The position numbers and the translations under genes are program-made. A stretch of 64,000 nt of DNA, from sequence record OR539220.1, one strand, 5' to 3'. A model generated the notes under the pieces. It made no database searches. It saw only the letters and a program-made list of their open reading frames with translations, and had not been told where the DNA came from. Shown here piece after piece: positions 15,762 through 20,537 of the stretch. The stretch comes from Escherichia phage vB-Eco-KMB40. Position 1 is the stretch's first letter; every line of letters starts with the position of its first letter.

Positions 15762-15765
15762 CAAT

Positions 15766-15790
15766 GGGGACCGAAAGGTCCCCATGTTTT
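15766..15790. terminator. hairpin GGGGACC-GAAA-GGTCCCC with T-run after gene 54
   Basis: 7-bp GC stem followed by ATGTTTTTATTT. Confidence 0.5.
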
Positions 15791-16080
15791 TATTTACGGA
15801 ATGAAATAAAAGCAGCAACTGAAGCAACAGAGGTTTCTTCAATATAAACCTCAATTTTTACCGGAGCTTCTGACTCAAATTTACCTGTTACTACACCCTG
15901 AAAAATACTTTCAGTCTGTTCTGGCTTTGAAAAATTTTCAGAAGGAAAAATTCCGAACTTTTTATCTGTTCCAAAAATTTTGATAAATTCATCGTAAACT
16001 GCTTCATTGAAAGCGTTATCAGCGGGAATAACGCCTTCAACGACGAGTTCTTGACCTAAAAAGCGCAAAGAAGATTTCAT
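15790..16080 (-). CDS. hypothetical protein (alt.-3 position)
   Basis: 96-aa ORF; RBS GAGGAA; own early promoter just upstream. Confidence 0.55.
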   Translation of the reverse strand: MKSSLRFLGQELVVEGVIPADNAFNEAVYDEFIKIFGTDKKFGIFPSENFSKPEQTESIFQGVVTGKFESEAPVKIEVYIEETSVASVAAFISFRK

Positions 16081-16111
16081 TTTGTGTTCCTCATGTTATG
16101 TCAGTAAGACT

Positions 16112-16141
16112 ACTATAACACAACATGAGGGACTTGTAAAC
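16112..16141 (-). promoter_or_regulatory. early promoter (GTTTAC -35, TATAGT -10)
   Basis: Minus strand GTTTAC (plus 16136-16141), 18-nt spacer, TATAGT; near-identical copy at 31411-31440. Confidence 0.5.
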
Positions 16142-18198
16142 TACATTTTGAACTTTTTAGACATTCCGTTGATGTTAACCAAAGAAGCTAAGATTTGAGA
16201 AACTTCGTTTTCCTCTTCTTTTGATTCTTCTACAAGGAATTGATTAAATCCAGCCATTGGACGAACTTCGCCAGTTTCCATTAGATGGTCGCCATCATAT
16301 ACTGATTCTTCTAATTGTTCAGAAGGAGGAACGATTGTACCTTCGATTAGATACTTGTTATAAGCAGTTTCTTTCATAAAGTAAGTACTTACTTTATTAA
16401 TCTTCAGTAAAATTCCACGTGGTAGAATAACTTCAGCTTCTGATGGAAATCCTGACAAATGACCTGGAACGATAACTTTAACTCGTTCAGCTCCTTTAAT
16501 TACCATACCCACGCTAGTTTCAGCATCTTCATTAGCATATGTAGAATGACTACCCATATGCATCAAATCTTCTGCATCAACGGAACCTTCTCCTTCACCA
16601 GAAAATACTGCTCCGGAATTATCTAAGGCCATATAATTTTTACCATACTCACCAAAGATATTTGGTTTAAGTGATGTCGATACGAAGTTCTTGAAATAGA
16701 ACATTTTATTTTCAATGTTATGACGCAAAGTTTTAAAAGTAACTTCTTGTCCACGGTAAAGTGTAGTTCCTGGAGGAAGAACTGAACCTTTAGCGAATGC
16801 AGAATCCAGCGTCTCAATATGTTTAATAGCTCGTTCCATATATTCTTCACGTGTAGAATCAGGTTTACCTAAAAGGAATGAGTTCATTTCAACATACGAA
16901 TCTGCGCAATAATCTTCAATTACATCAGACTCAGCCTGAGTCAATCCTTTTGGAGTTACTTCAGTGCTTGCATATTCATATGCCTGAGCAGCAGATTCAT
17001 CAATTAATTTATAAATTCCATTCATTACAAATTGAATAATAGCTGTCTTTTCATCTGGTGTAGCTTTAGAACCTTTAACTAAATCATTGATAATTTTCTT
17101 AATAACATCAAAACTATTAGAAATATTAATATCAGCAAGATCACTTAAAATTTTATCAGTTTTATAATCAAAGAATTCTTTATTCTTTAAATATTCTTGA
17201 GAACCTTGATATGTTATATCGCTCTGCAGCTTGATAGATGGATCGCGTAAACGTGCATGGGCCAATGCAATATGATTTCGGAAGCTTTCGAGTTCATAAT
17301 CACTAGATTTAAAACGAGAAGCACTTCTCATACCACCGATAGCTCCTTTGCTAAAGTTTGAACCAACCTGAATAACGCCAGAGTTCATTGGTCCTTCTGC
17401 TTTATATACCGGAACTTTAGATTCAAACTCTTGATATTTCTTAGCAGCGAAGCTATCACCCTGAAGTGAAGCATCAACAGTAGAATATTGAGCTTGCGCT
17501 GCTAATCGACGACTAATTTTAGTTTTCTGAATAACAGCTTGATCCGTGCGCTTATCATTTTCTAAAGCAATAGAAGCAGCAACAGCAACAGCTTTAGGAA
17601 CAGCATTACCTGTTTTAACGTCTACATAAACATCACCAACCTTTGATTCAACTTTTGTGAATAACTCGGTTGAAATAGGAGGTACACCTGGAATGTCTTC
17701 TAAATTGGCATTTTTACGGTAAACCATAATATATGCGTACTTTTTATCATAATCCCAGATTTCCTTTAAAAGAACATATCGACCTGCTCCTTTAGTACGT
17801 ACTAAACGGTCAGCAATAACTTGCATTTGCCGAGCAGCGCCATTTGTTTTACTTTTTAGTACGCGGAATAAGCATGCATCAATTTTATACTGTTTCATTG
17901 TTTGAAGAGCAGTATCAAAAACAGCATTAATGACGCCAATTGGATTTCCACCCAAGTTTTTAAGCTTAACTAATGATAGTTTCTCATTAACACCTATCAT
18001 TACGATATGCATCATTTTGTCGCCTGGCTTAACGTTTTTATTCGTATCACCGCCAGAGGTGTATGTACAAAATCTAAATCCAGGAAGCACGCTTTCTTCA
18101 CCTGCTTGAATAGCAAAAATTTGAGGTATTTTATGCTTAGGATTTAAGTTAACAACCGGCGCCGAAGCGCCGTCAAATAATTCTGTAATAAGTTCCAT
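16141..18198 (-). CDS. Alt-family mono-ADP-ribosyltransferase paralog (alt.-2 position)
   Basis: 685 aa; N-terminus MELITELFD (capsid-targeting type); R-S-E motifs YRGQ, FVSTSL, EAEVILPRG. Confidence 0.8.
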   Translation of the reverse strand: MELITELFDGASAPVVNLNPKHKIPQIFAIQAGEESVLPGFRFCTYTSGGDTNKNVKPGDKMMHIVMIGVNEKLSLVKLKNLGGNPIGVINAVFDTALQTMKQYKIDACLFRVLKSKTNGAARQMQVIADRLVRTKGAGRYVLLKEIWDYDKKYAYIMVYRKNANLEDIPGVPPISTELFTKVESKVGDVYVDVKTGNAVPKAVAVAASIALENDKRTDQAVIQKTKISRRLAAQAQYSTVDASLQGDSFAAKKYQEFESKVPVYKAEGPMNSGVIQVGSNFSKGAIGGMRSASRFKSSDYELESFRNHIALAHARLRDPSIKLQSDITYQGSQEYLKNKEFFDYKTDKILSDLADINISNSFDVIKKIINDLVKGSKATPDEKTAIIQFVMNGIYKLIDESAAQAYEYASTEVTPKGLTQAESDVIEDYCADSYVEMNSFLLGKPDSTREEYMERAIKHIETLDSAFAKGSVLPPGTTLYRGQEVTFKTLRHNIENKMFYFKNFVSTSLKPNIFGEYGKNYMALDNSGAVFSGEGEGSVDAEDLMHMGSHSTYANEDAETSVGMVIKGAERVKVIVPGHLSGFPSEAEVILPRGILLKINKVSTYFMKETAYNKYLIEGTIVPPSEQLEESVYDGDHLMETGEVRPMAGFNQFLVEESKEEENEVSQILASLVNINGMSKKFKM

Positions 18199-18201
18199 GA
18201 T

Positions 18202-20295
18202 TTATCCTTGAACGAACTTGTAAGGCATGTTTGTAATATCTATGCAAGACGCAATAATTCCAAGAGATGATTCTACTTTCTGTTTAATATTTGATGAAAC
18301 AAATGATGCAAAGTCAACTCTGTCTTCTATTTCAATATCACCTGTCATTGCAACCAATTCACCAGTTTCCATTAAATGGTCTCCATCATAGATTACCGAT
18401 TCGGTGAGCTCTTCCGTGGTCATAACTTCAGCTTGAATGAGTTTTGTATTATTAGATGTTGTTCCGTCATTATTAGAAGCATCGGTTATTTTATTAACTT
18501 TGACCATCAATCCACGCGGTAGAATAACTTCAGCTTCTGTTGCTATTCCGAGACTTCCTGGATATACAACATTAACTTTATGAGCTCCATCAATTGCCCA
18601 TCCTATTTGAACTTTAACATATTCAGGATTTTCTTTATACGCTCTTATTTCGTTTGGATTAATAGTTATTCCTTCTTCATTTTTATCAACTGTTAATTCA
18701 TTGCGAGCTTCTGGTTCTAAAAGACCAATACCAGCATGTGTGATTCCAAAACGTCCAAAAATGATAGGAGTTAAAGAAGTAGATACAAAATTTCTGAAGT
18801 AGAACACTTTATTTTTAACTAACGCTTCATATATAGGAGCAGTCATACTTTGAGCACGATAAACTGTAATGCCTTCTGGTATACGGTCACCATTTTCAAA
18901 AGCTGAATCTAAATTATTTATAGCAGATTCAATTTCTTTTTCACTCATTATATCATATCGTTCTGGATTGTAACGACCTAAAAGAAGATTATTGATGTCT
19001 GTATATCCTGAACCACAATACTCTCTAATGCCGCGCTTTTGTGATGGAGTATATTTAGAACCATCACGGGCAATAGTAATATCAATCATTGGACCTGCAC
19101 AAATTCCGGAAAAGCTATAAATCATTCGTTTGAGGAATTTAGTTTTTGCTGCATTCCAGGCATTTTTAGTTATTTCTCCCCAGACTTCATCTGGCTGCCC
19201 TTTACGAGTTTTATTATGTTTATCAAGCCAATTATCTTTATATTCTTCAAATAATTGATTAACAGCTGCTGCGTATTTCTCTAAACATTTTATTGAAGTA
19301 GTTGGTTCATTTTTAATCGCATTAAGAATTACATCTTTAATTTTTTCTGAAACTTCATCAACCTCACTTTTTGAAAAGAATTTATAGTCATAGTGAAGTT
19401 CATTCGCAGTTCCTTCAGCAATAATTTTTGCTGCCTTTGTTTTAGAAGCTAATGAATTAATTCCAATTTTCATTTCTTCTGCTTCGGGAATTAAAGGTGC
19501 AGTAGCTGGTTTATTAAAATTAGCTGCTGTAGATTCATACTTCTGGAATAATTCACTTTCAAATCTAGAAGATTCCAATGACTGACTTTGTGCAATTGCT
19601 CTACGGGAAATTTTAACTTTAACGATTACAGCTTGATCAGAACGTTTATCATTTTCTTGTGCAATTGATGCTGCAATTGCCTCATTTTTAGTTACTTGAG
19701 CTCCAGTATCTTTATTGATATAAACATCACCGACCTTCGATTCAACTTTAGTAAAAAGCTCGGTACTAATTTCCGGAACTCCTGGAATGTCTTCTAGTGA
19801 TACATTTTTGCGATGTATAAGAATATATGCGTACTTTTTATCATAATCCCAGAGTTCCTTAAGAAGGACGTATCTGCCACCTGAACGACTACGGATAAGT
19901 CTATCAGCAATAACTTGAATTTGTCGAGCTTGACCAGCGGTTTTAGACTTAAGAATACGAAGCATGCAGGCATCAATTTTATACTGACGCATTGTTTGCA
20001 TTGCAACAGTAAAAACTGAATTGATATAATTAATTGGGCTTGGACCAAGACCTTTTAATTTGGCAATTGAACCTTTAGCAGTTAATGTAAAAGGAACAAT
20101 ATGCATCATTTTATCGCCCATCTTTAAATCGCGATTAGTATCACCTCCAGATGTATAGGTACATAAACGAAAGCCTGGTTGTTCAATTGCATCATCAACA
20201 TGAACTGAAAAAATTTGTGGTATTTTCTTCTTTGGATTTAAGTTTGTAATCGGAAGAGTAGTATCTTCGTCAAATAATTCTGTAATAAGTTCCAT
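18202..20295 (-). CDS. alt: ADP-ribosyltransferase Alt (packaged head protein)
   Basis: 697 aa; MELITELFDE N-terminus; motifs YRAQ, FVSTSL, EAEVILPRG; adjacent to ligase gene 30 region as in T4. Confidence 0.85.
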   Translation of the reverse strand: MELITELFDEDTTLPITNLNPKKKIPQIFSVHVDDAIEQPGFRLCTYTSGGDTNRDLKMGDKMMHIVPFTLTAKGSIAKLKGLGPSPINYINSVFTVAMQTMRQYKIDACMLRILKSKTAGQARQIQVIADRLIRSRSGGRYVLLKELWDYDKKYAYILIHRKNVSLEDIPGVPEISTELFTKVESKVGDVYINKDTGAQVTKNEAIAASIAQENDKRSDQAVIVKVKISRRAIAQSQSLESSRFESELFQKYESTAANFNKPATAPLIPEAEEMKIGINSLASKTKAAKIIAEGTANELHYDYKFFSKSEVDEVSEKIKDVILNAIKNEPTTSIKCLEKYAAAVNQLFEEYKDNWLDKHNKTRKGQPDEVWGEITKNAWNAAKTKFLKRMIYSFSGICAGPMIDITIARDGSKYTPSQKRGIREYCGSGYTDINNLLLGRYNPERYDIMSEKEIESAINNLDSAFENGDRIPEGITVYRAQSMTAPIYEALVKNKVFYFRNFVSTSLTPIIFGRFGITHAGIGLLEPEARNELTVDKNEEGITINPNEIRAYKENPEYVKVQIGWAIDGAHKVNVVYPGSLGIATEAEVILPRGLMVKVNKITDASNNDGTTSNNTKLIQAEVMTTEELTESVIYDGDHLMETGELVAMTGDIEIEDRVDFASFVSSNIKQKVESSLGIIASCIDITNMPYKFVQG

Positions 20296-20318
20296 GTTAT
20301 CCTCTCTAGTGTTTATTC

Positions 20319-20326
20319 TATTTATA
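20319..20326 (-). promoter_or_regulatory. late promoter TATAAATA for alt
   Basis: Plus TATTTATA; 24 nt upstream of alt ATG; RBS GAGAGGA. Confidence 0.5.
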
Positions 20327-20351: not shown

Positions 20352-20537
20352 TTAATAGAGAGCTAAAAGAGTACGATATACTTCAAACTTTGGACCTTTT
20401 TCATAGGCATCAAATGTTTCTGTGAATTTATTATAAGCATATGCATCTATAAATTCAATCATGATTTGTGATACAGAAGTAGAAACATCTCCACCTTCTT
20501 TTTGAGCCACGACAATTGTTTCTAAGTAAGCTTTCAT
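20352..20537 (-). CDS. hypothetical protein
   Basis: 61-aa ORF; start overlaps gene 30 stop by 4 nt. Confidence 0.5.
   Translation of the reverse strand: MKAYLETIVVAQKEGGDVSTSVSQIMIEFIDAYAYNKFTETFDAYEKGPKFEVYRTLLALY

Follow-up and report, generated by a model that had tools for sequence, protein, structure and literature searches.

The tandem alt and alt2 genes of Escherichia phage vB-Eco-KMB40: Alt-family paralogs with similar ends and divergent centres

In this study, two adjacent Alt-family genes were analyzed in a window of 64,000 nucleotides (the whole stretch of DNA considered) from Escherichia phage vB-Eco-KMB40 (OR539220.1). The explanation we favour, with a probability of roughly 60%, is that they encode two arginine-specific mono-ADP-ribosyltransferases, Alt and Alt2, which arose by an ancient tandem duplication, would be expressed late, packaged into the head and injected, and would act on different targets. 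The gene pair is already known and annotated as Alt/Alt2 in public records: both the RefSeq annotation of T4 and Nolan et al. 2006 (PMC1524935) mention the duplication, and the second protein is named Alt2 in GenBank, so the novelty implied by the first-pass annotation of this DNA did not hold.

In the literature, Alt2 was found only as an annotation and in one supplementary table, with no published function, and for Alt2-carrying phages neither a virion proteomics report nor an Alt2 enzyme assay was found. What is known about injected phage ADP-ribosyltransferases comes nearly entirely from T4, which is the exception in having lost Alt2, while most T4 relatives, including T2 and many therapy and biocontrol phages, encode two different enzymes and possibly inject both. 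Also, T4 relatives often carry an Alt allele other than that on which the T4 work was done. Should Alt2 act on a separate host target, only half of host takeover and counter-defence by T-even phages would have been described.

Gene order, orthology and expression signals

Both ORFs were located on the minus strand (Table 1) exactly as first annotated, with lengths of 697 and 685 aa and a gap of 3 nt (18199-18201), and the pair is positioned between gp54/alt.-3 and alt.1/DNA ligase. The pairwise alignment proposed at first pass gave 41% identity with 478 bits and an E-value of 9e-165 (BLASTP), which is far beyond chance and confirmed paralogy. PF03496 was matched by the 697-aa protein with 129.1 bits (E 1.8e-37) and by the 685-aa protein with 71.7 bits (E 6.8e-20), the cut-off being 23.4, and phrog_802 was matched end to end by both (E 1e-256 for the 685-aa protein).

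Table 1. Features of the alt/alt2 locus (positions in the window).
Feature	Position	Strand	Remarks
Hairpin AAAGGCC-TTCG-GGCCTTT then T-run, directly 3' of alt.1 stop codon	20332..20349	-	read from sequence
T4-type late promoter box TATAAATA, perfect, 23 nt 5' of the 697-aa gene ATG	20319..20326	-	sequence scan
Shine-Dalgarno GAGAGG of the 697-aa gene	20301-20306	-	
alt ortholog, 697 aa	18202..20295	-	ORF; RB51/T2-type Alt allele
Alt N-terminal domain (aa 1-233, PF26846 Tevenvirinae_ADPRT), including 6-aa propeptide MELITE with gp21 motif ITE-6	19597..20295	-	
Alt central all-helical region (aa 234-412), allele-specific	19060..19596	-	predicted helices 242-408
Alt ART domain (aa 413-632), R480, S505, E587/E589, ending at LTE-632 cleavage motif	18400..19059	-	
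Second perfect TATAAATA, inside the alt reading frame (codons A-I-N-N), 717 nt 5' of the start of the 685-aa gene	18915..18922	-	
Alt C-terminal propeptide-like tail (aa 633-697) and stop codon	18202..18399	-	
alt2, 685 aa, second Alt paralog	16141..18198	-	ORF; PF03496, phrog_802 matches
Alt2 N-terminal domain (aa 1-232, PF26846), identical propeptide MELITE	17503..18198	-	
Alt2 central all-helical region (aa 233-415)	16954..17502	-	predicted helices 250-414
Alt2 ART domain (aa 416-631), R482, S507, E587/E589, F584 at -3 of ExE, ending at LEE-631 cleavage-type motif	16306..16953	-	
Alt2 C-terminal tail (aa 632-685) and stop codon	16141..16305	-	low model confidence

The upstream gene had been taken for the uncharacterised paralog, and this assignment has to be reversed: both synteny and sequence identify the 697-aa gene as the ortholog of T4 alt, present as a divergent allele. 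It is flanked like T4 alt, between alt.1/ligase and gp54, and the orthology test, which combined best reciprocal cargo-domain similarity with adjacency to alt.1, assigned it to T4 alt. The encoded protein is 70% identical to T4 Alt overall, with an N-domain ~100% identical to T4 Alt aa 1-246, a tail of 95% identity, and the late promoter box, the R-S-ExE residues and both gp21 motifs in common. In contrast, identity falls to ~34% in the centre and to 66% in the ART domain, because of which we regard it as a different allele; thereby, the claim that one of the pair is the characterised Alt stands for orthology and fails for the allele. The protein shares 97.6-98.7% identity with the T2 gene product and with the annotated 'Alt' proteins of Bas38, Bas39 and Bas44, and its centre was found with at least 90% identity in 292 phage records and with less than 60% in 440.

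The downstream 685-aa gene is, judged from sequence, the extra paralog and the intact form of the T4 remnants alt.-1/alt.-2. As a candidate for the T4 alt ortholog it was rejected, with 41% identity to T4 Alt overall, 35% in the ART domain and 11% in the centre. T4 alt.-1/alt.-2 map to the first ~116 alt2 codons and T4 is devoid of window positions ~16160-17851; a disrupted reading frame and the loss of ~1.7 kb have destroyed the T4 gene, while the gene described here is intact. The PHROGs of alt.-1 and alt.-2 were matched with E 2e-40 and 3e-38 by the 685-aa protein versus 1e-21 and 2e-19 by Alt. In RB51 the gene is annotated alt.-2 and in BASEL phages 'Alt2'; the identity to 'ADP-ribosyltransferase Alt2' of Bas35, Bas38, Bas39 and Bas44 and to the T2 gene product is 98.4-99.1%. 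By this identity, and in position and length, it is the same protein as Alt2 of these phages and of Bas37, RB51/RB14 alt.-2, and the second alt of T2 and JS98. Its centre occurs with at least 90% identity in 401 phage records including T2, and is ~43% identical in Dhakavirus.

Among the expression signals, the hairpin with T-run looks like a terminator ahead of the alt operon; it was not called by a consensus terminator scan, and a terminator upstream of alt was described as conserved among T4-like genomes (Nolan 2006, PMC1524935). The late promoter box ahead of the 697-aa gene is also present upstream of T4 alt (L001 7532-7539) and RB51 alt, and co-transcription of both genes from it, as first suggested, is plausible. 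The claim that a late promoter is visible only upstream of the distal gene is limited to intergenic DNA, because a second perfect TATAAATA lies within the upstream gene. This box, which is present in RB51 and absent in T4, may act as a late promoter of alt2 from within alt; the alt2 ATG is preceded by a Shine-Dalgarno-like AAGGA.

Ends, centres and catalytic domains

The first 28 nt of both genes are identical, close to the about 30 nt initially reported, and both proteins begin with MELITELFD. The N-terminal domains (aa 1-232) are 68% identical, in agreement with the described conservation over some 230 aa, and the equally expected divergence further on was found in the centres (aa 233-415; 11% identity) and in the C-terminal tails (42%). 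For the centres, profile-profile comparison (hhalign) gave a probability of 1%, that is, no detectable similarity, and the ART domains are 35% identical. Recent gene conversion of the N-domains was ruled out as the source of their likeness, because just 62% of codons are identical where the residues are identical.

In T4 Alt, the gp21 protease cleaves at ITE-6 and LTE-619, and the 63 residues past LTE-619 are removed (PMC5694885). At motif level, gp21-type sites were found at ITE-6 and LTE-632 of the 697-aa protein and at ITE-6 and LEE-631 of the 685-aa protein. The pattern [LI]-x-E followed by S-V-(I)-Y-D-G-D was kept in all seven Alt/Alt2 proteins compared, and the pairs of JS98 and L004 have likewise retained both motifs. 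The PF26846 assignment was precomputed for the 98%-identical cluster representatives P0001 and P0121 and for both L004 genes. Both proteins retain the N-terminal propeptide and a packaging-type N-domain, in line with the capsid-targeting N-terminus proposed before, and the Alt2 tail is probably a propeptide as well.

These ends also bear on the alternative that Alt2 is made late and acts on proteins of the phage or the host within the cell that makes it, instead of being injected into the next host. The late promoter or promoters driving Alt2 would agree with such a role, packaging of Alt2 being deduced from its sequence. We consider it improbable, since the parts that are processed in packaged T4 Alt, namely the propeptide (identical here), the N-domain and the L-x-E site near the C-terminus, are all retained by Alt2, and since the two N-domains of a given genome co-vary, as would be expected of proteins fitting the same head core.

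The catalytic motifs are YRAQ479, FVSTS503 and EAEVILPRG587 in the 697-aa protein and YRGQ481, FVSTS505 and EAEVILPRG587 in the 685-aa protein. R, S and both E were invariant in alignments of 46 and 41 homologs, which together with the PF03496 matches upheld the assignment of both genes to the Alt family by the R-S-E signature. Structure prediction, also suggested at first pass with regard to the NAD-binding cleft, gave a C3/Vis-like ART fold with such a cleft for both proteins; the models are of moderate confidence, with pLDDT <50 in the PN-loop insert and the tails. The ART domains differ in the ARTT loop and the PN-loop insert. In Alt2, an aromatic residue is located three positions before ExE (F584-P-S-E587-A-E589), as in the downstream proteins of JS98 and L004 (both Y), and this aromatic is absent in the upstream lineage, which has I (697-aa protein), P (T4), H (JS98) or Q (L004). 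For the role of the aromatic residue in Alt2 we assume what applies to C3 and iota toxins. The ExE motif is typical of arginine-specific ARTs, and by analogy the aromatic would correspond to that of protein-arginine ARTs.

Spread, selection and transposon phenotypes

The tandem was found in at least 347 phage records including T2, RB51 and BASEL phages. Dhakavirus JS98 also carries the pair, because of which the Alt/Alt2 duplication is, on sequence grounds, older than the split of Tequatrovirus and Dhakavirus. Across genera, ART domain identity was 59-73% among downstream and 55-66% among upstream proteins, versus 33-39% between upstream and downstream ones; by this measure, the ART domains group by gene position as two separate lineages.

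Published phenotypes are available for Bas37, in which Alt and Alt2 were identified from gene lengths and annotation; on the same grounds, Bas37 Alt would be the same allele as the 697-aa gene. In a transposon library, Alt2 was classified as 'Intermediate' (116 of 164 TA sites hit, 44.5 reads per site) and Alt as 'Non-essential' (203.6 reads per site) (10.1101/2025.11.20.689424, supplementary table 7). Under Mokosh type I, Alt insertions dropped from 213 to 0 (log2FC -7.74), making Alt essential there, and Alt2 insertions were enriched from 41.6 to 105.3 (log2FC +1.32, q 0) (10.1101/2025.11.20.689424). According to the same preprint, Bas37 Alt differs notably from T4 Alt and could not replace it against Mokosh type I. 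Thus, alt mutants are not rescued by an intact alt2, and loss of Alt2 is beneficial; in these published data, Alt and Alt2 are not redundant. The benefit of losing Alt2 fits competition for shared packaging sites, and the enrichment may have other readings, e.g. that Alt2 activity helps to trigger the defence. The lower number of alt2 insertions could reflect harmful truncated products instead of lost function, and the phenotypes may also depend on the polarity of the transposon. The opposite phenotypes under Mokosh type I provide a concrete starting point for further work.

It is improbable that Alt2 is a redundant back-up or dosage copy with the same host targets as Alt, e.g. the RNA polymerase alpha subunit. 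In favour of this reading, both proteins come from one operon and have their family, catalytic motif and delivery parts in common, and promiscuity of T4 Alt in vitro is known (Depping 2005, cited in PMC5512222). Against this stand the low identity of the ART domains, the unrelated centres, two lineages kept apart since before the genus split, and, under Mokosh, the complete loss of alt insertions despite intact alt2 together with the enrichment of alt2 insertions.

Alt2 is under strong purifying selection, with dN/dS values of 0.03-0.06 for the whole gene and 0.00-0.04 for its ART domain (window, RB51, T2, FL33). Also, T4 grows well without intact Alt2, because of which alt2 is dispensable at least in laboratory hosts. 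Alt2 might then be mainly a structural or filler part of the prohead core, or a gene being lost, its enzymatic activity being immaterial: T4 reduced alt2 to two small ORFs at no obvious cost, an intact Alt2 centre was present in 401 of 544 Tequatrovirus records, leaving about a quarter without it, and the 'Intermediate' class could stem from assembly defects caused by truncated protein. This is hardly likely given the invariant R, S and both E, a dN/dS in the ART domain as low as that of the N-domain, and an uninterrupted, full-length alt2 reading frame in the window, T2, RB51, FL33, four BASEL phages (Bas35, Bas38, Bas39, Bas44), JS98 and L004.

Related ADP-ribosyltransferases and proposed mechanism

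T4 Alt is an NAD-arginine ADP-ribosyltransferase, of which ~40 copies per head are injected with the DNA. The C3-like and binary-toxin ARTs Vis, C3bot, iota/CDTa/CPILE-a, VIP2 and Certhrax resemble Alt and Alt2 in their ART fold and in an active site composed of R / S-T-S / ExE, and they share with Alt2 the ARTT-loop aromatic at -3 of ExE. Unlike these toxins, Alt proteins have an insert of ~50-70 residues with low model confidence at the expected PN-loop site, an N-domain specific to phages and a helical centre; as shown for T4 Alt and proposed for Alt2, their ends are trimmed by a protease and they are delivered by the phage head instead of being secreted. T4 ModA and ModB belong to the same R-S-E clade of host-reprogramming phage ARTs (PMC5512222); they differ in that they are small, are synthesised early in the infected cell, lack an N-domain and do not enter the phage head.

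Least probable is that Alt2 modifies a target other than protein arginine (nucleic acid, small molecule) or attaches NAD-capped RNA. For this reading, the related R-S-E ART ModB of T4 links RNA chains to proteins (10.1101/2021.06.04.446905), and the crystals of Vis, which matches best in structure, contained agmatine, a small molecule with a guanidino group. Against it, ExE and the canonical ARTT aromatic indicate the protein-arginine type, and no sequence feature pointing to nucleic-acid binding was found.

For the favoured pair of differently targeted injected enzymes, we propose that after the duplication the common delivery parts, i.e. the 6-residue propeptide, the ~230-aa N-domain (PF26846) and the L-x-E site with the C-terminal tail, would bring both proteins into the prohead core, where gp21 would trim both ends of Alt and Alt2 as shown for T4 Alt. 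The cargo would differ in its unrelated helical middle and in an ART domain with another ARTT loop and PN-loop insert. After injection, Alt and Alt2 would ADP-ribosylate different host proteins; different targets are expected because the cargo differs, and the corresponding suggestion of the first-pass annotation is plausible. Packaging, injection and catalysis of Alt2, a target differing from that of Alt, and packaging sites shared or contested with Alt are what we infer.

Going further, we tentatively propose as a possible but doubtful extension that alt is a delivery locus with exchangeable cargo, in which the conserved N-domain (possibly of GNAT-like fold) and the protease-removed tail would serve as head-packaging handles for different effector modules placed between them, Alt and Alt2 would compete for the ~40 slots in the prohead core, and Alt2 would hit its own host target. 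If so, the injected enzyme mix, and hence the outcome against Mokosh-type defences, would be set by the paralogs and alleles carried, and the Alt2 target would have been overlooked because T4 lacks the gene. The modules to be considered here are at least three Alt centre/ART alleles and Alt2, plus a few N-domain proteins without a recognisable ART domain.

Gene identity and organization of the locus

The phage is T4-like (genus Tequatrovirus), and the 4.9 kb around the tandem share approximately 97% nucleotide identity with RB51, RB68, wV7, FriedrichMiescher, and numerous other phages. Following the transcription of the tandem, DNA ligase (gp30), alt.1, alt, alt2, and alt.-3 come first, and the baseplate genes 54, 48, and 29 then converge on them. 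This neighborhood is that of the alt locus of T4. The two tandem genes are encoded on the same strand with a gap of 3 nt.

Features of the alt-alt2 locus in the window
Feature	Position	Strand	Description
alt.1	20352-20537		61-aa ORF between ligase gene and alt; Pfam PF24647 'Phage blade protein', full length, E 1.2e-28
alt	18202..20295	-	697-aa ORF
alt, N-domain	19597-20295		
alt, centre	19060-19596		
Internal TATAAATA	18915-18922	-	Within alt, codons A-I-N-N; 717 nt before the alt2 ATG
alt2	16141..18198	-	685-aa ORF
alt2, N-domain	17503-18198		
Region with equivalent missing from T4	~16160-17851		
Early-type promoter	within 16081-16140	-	Straight after the alt2 stop, upstream of alt.-3
alt.-3	15790-16080	-	DUF5498
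GC-rich hairpin	15764-15785		Between converging gene 54 and alt.-3; T-runs on both strands; putative bidirectional terminator

The first-pass annotation had described the pair correctly with respect to coordinates, shared start, ADP-ribosyltransferase (ART) signature, and uneven divergence, but it had taken the upstream gene for an uncharacterized paralog. These roles have to be swapped, since T4 Alt shares 70% identity with the 697-aa upstream protein, whose gene adjoins alt.1 as T4 alt does, but 41% with the 685-aa downstream protein (Alt2). Where the downstream gene would lie, T4 has the small ORFs alt.-1 and alt.-2. In alignment they correspond to its first ~116 codons, and the T4 RefSeq note describes them as an old duplication of the alt start. 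The full-length downstream gene is annotated as alt.-2 in RB51 and RB14 and as 'ADP-ribosyltransferase Alt2' in the BASEL collection phages Bas35, Bas38, Bas39, and Bas44, the proteins of which are 98.4-99.1% identical to that of the window. Duplications of alt in T4-like genomes were also listed by Nolan et al. 2006 (PMC1524935). The second paralog is thus already known and named, but not studied. Its novelty had been overestimated, as both the annotation of T4 and the literature document the duplication and GenBank entries use the name Alt2.

Nor does the upstream gene correspond to the alt of the textbooks. Compared with T4 Alt, residues 1-246 of its product are ~100% and the last ~60 residues ~95% identical, while identity drops to 10-40% (sliding windows) in the middle and to 66% in the ART domain. 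Judged from these comparisons, alt is a mosaic with N-domain and tail close to T4 and a strongly diverged centre and ART domain. In the phage collection, the middle region of the 697-aa type was found with at least 90% identity in 292 records and with less than 60% in 440, and the identities of the Alt centre fell into classes of ≥90%, 60-80%, ~49%, and ~30%. T4-type Alt occurs together with Alt2 in Bas35 and SHFML-26, and 697-type Alt together with Alt2 in T2, RB51, and the window. The Alt alleles assort independently of Alt2 and are found freely combined in phages with and without it.

A perfect late-promoter box TATAAATA is located 23 nt 5′ of the alt ATG, directly past a hairpin and T-run 3′ of alt.1, and an identical box is found at the equal position in T4 and RB51. 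This is the late promoter that had been noted before as the only one; however, the coding sequence of alt contains a further perfect TATAAATA, which is conserved in RB51 and absent from T4. This internal box is a candidate source of a separate late transcript of alt2. Such a transcript would fit transposon data of phage Bas37 (see below), where insertions in alt do not show the low counts of those in alt2.

Downstream of alt2, an early-type T4 promoter was observed (GTTTACA, 17 nt, TATAGT, with TG). It is followed 3′ by a strong hairpin (-23.4 kcal/mol, z -4.0), the 3′ arm of which holds GAGG, the ribosome binding site of alt.-3. In RNA reading through from alt and alt2 this GAGG would be masked, and RNA from the early promoter would be without the 5′ arm. 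The arrangement resembles the usual T4 coupling of translation to one class of transcripts.

Comparison of the two proteins and signals for packaging

Alt and Alt2 align over the full length with 41% identity (E 9e-165). Both start with MELITELFD, the first 28 nt of the genes being identical, and the identity varies by region, with 68% in the N-domain (aa 1-232), 11% in the next ~180 residues, 35% in the ART domain, and 42% in the tail. Homology of the two centres recognizable by sequence was considered and dropped, as profile-profile comparison with hhalign gave a probability of 1%.

Both proteins score above the threshold of Pfam PF03496 and match end to end the PHROG 'Alt-like RNA polymerase ADP-ribosyltransferase'. 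In the 697-aa protein, the catalytic residues (R, S-T-S, and E-x-E) are R480/S505/E587/E589, and in the 685-aa protein R482/S507/E587/E589; alignments of 41 and 46 homologs show no variation at these residues. NCBIfam gave no match for either protein, Pfam with the E cut-off relaxed to 10 returned no convincing match to the N-domains or the centres, and a search of PDB sequences yielded no structure of Alt or Alt2 and weak CDTa/iota matches for the 697-aa protein only. A predicted structure lacking an NAD-binding cleft would have refuted the proposal of the first-pass annotation. This is not the case, as the AlphaFold model of Alt2, of moderate confidence (pLDDT 74.5), shows an ART domain, together with an alpha/beta N-domain, an all-helical middle, and a low-confidence insert (516-539) and tail. 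At position -3 of E-x-E in the ARTT loop, the two lineages are consistently distinct, the downstream one having an aromatic residue (F, Y, Y) and the upstream one I, P, H, or Q. Toxins of the C3 and iota types contact their protein substrate through this aromatic residue of the ARTT loop. Length and sequence of the long insert that replaces the PN loop likewise vary between the proteins.

T4 Alt is a protein of the prohead core present in ~40 copies and is trimmed by the head protease gp21 after ITE-6 and LTE-619 (PMC9026906, PMC5694885). Alt2 retains ITE-6, as its first nine residues are identical to those of Alt, and has LEE-631 in the context [LI]-x-E|S-V-(I)-Y-D-G-D, which is common to 7/7 Alt and Alt2 proteins compared. 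The sequence signals for packaging are therefore present in Alt2; virion proteomics or biochemistry for Alt2 was not found in the literature searched. A profile search with the N-domain returned 73 clusters in 1.84 billion representative proteins, nearly all of 600-712 aa and with an ART domain. A few proteins carry the N-domain without a recognizable ART domain (P0253, P0256, P0260, and P0255); the 1142-aa protein P0255 is encoded directly after a DNA ligase gene, like alt (L011 552-3980), and its ART match is weak and partial (16 bits). Such proteins may combine the same delivery domain with other cargo.

Age, distribution, and selection

At least 347 phage records span 80% or more of the 4.9-kb tandem, and the middle specific for Alt2 was found with at least 90% identity in 401 records, T2 included. 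The same tandem in the same order is present in Dhakavirus JS98 and in an uncultured relative. Across these two genomes and the window, middle, ART domain, and tail cluster by gene position, with ART identities of 59-73% between downstream genes, 55-66% between upstream genes, and 33-39% between upstream and downstream genes. As this grouping holds across genera, the duplication predates the split of Tequatrovirus and Dhakavirus.

The N-domains, in contrast, group by genome, with 65% identity between the upstream and downstream genes of JS98, 68% within the pair of the window, and 42-46% between genera. This suggests concerted evolution, such as old gene conversion, or else that both N-domains follow a common partner in the head core of their own phage. 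Recent gene conversion was rejected as the cause, because identical residues of the pair have identical codons in only 62% of cases and the two longest stretches in common measure 32 and 28 nt. alt2 was intact in every genome examined, and its dN/dS (window, RB51, T2, FL33) was 0.03-0.06 overall, 0.00-0.04 in the ART domain, and ~0.06-0.12 in the middle. The tandem is thus a genuine and old pair of genes that is widely distributed and subject to selection.

Opposite transposon phenotypes of alt and alt2

In a 2025 preprint, gene essentiality in T4 and Bas37 was determined by transposon sequencing (10.1101/2025.11.20.689424). The Bas37 locus comprises bas37_0031 (alt.-3), bas37_0032 ('Alt2', 2058 nt), and bas37_0033 ('Alt', 2097 nt), the latter two being matched to the genes of the window by gene lengths and annotation only. 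In the same study, T4 Alt was reported to aid evasion of the bacterial defence Mokosh type I, and Bas37 Alt, notably unlike T4 Alt in sequence, did not substitute for it; according to the supplementary discussion, evasion by Bas37 requires alt, modA, and a glucosyltransferase. Alt2 appears in the supplementary tables and is absent from the main-text discussion; the main text of the BASEL paper does not mention it either.

In the reference library, Alt2 was classified as 'Intermediate' (116/164 TA sites hit, 44.5 reads per site) and Alt as 'Non-essential' (164/179 sites, 203.6 reads per site). Under Mokosh type I, insertions in Alt2 rose from 41.6 to 105.3 (log2FC +1.32, q 0) and those in Alt fell from 213.1 to 0 (log2FC -7.74, q 0). 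With the hosts CFT073, CFE299, and CFE303, Alt2 was unchanged (log2FC 0.11, 0.19, and 0.00) and Alt not significant (10.1101/2025.11.20.689424). Given these opposite phenotypes, the two paralogs are not interchangeable. Alt and Alt2 would compete for the same packaging sites, and loss of Alt2 would raise the injected dose of Alt. We infer this competition as one simple reading of the opposite signs. As a caveat on the transposon data, a truncated Alt2 could by itself do harm, and the insertions may have polar effects.

The pair most probably encodes two arginine ADP-ribosyltransferases that are delivered by the phage head and act on different targets in the host. For the neighboring gene, insertions in bas37_0031 were depleted in CFT073 (log2FC -2.70, q 0.02; 10.1101/2025.11.20.689424). 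T4 mutants with a C-terminal extension of Alt.-3 escape CmdTAC, wild-type Alt.-3 being without known role (PMC11618068); a function as immunity factor for the neighboring ARTs was considered and dropped, as the published data concern only these gain-of-function mutants on CmdTAC.

The published inactive T4 Alt mutant is named E577A (PMC11404850). Counted in the RefSeq protein of T4 alt (T4 locus L001, 5455-7503), the glutamates of E-x-E are residues 574 and 576, in agreement with the numbering of ITE-6 and LTE-619; the difference is probably an off-by-one in the numbering of the construct.
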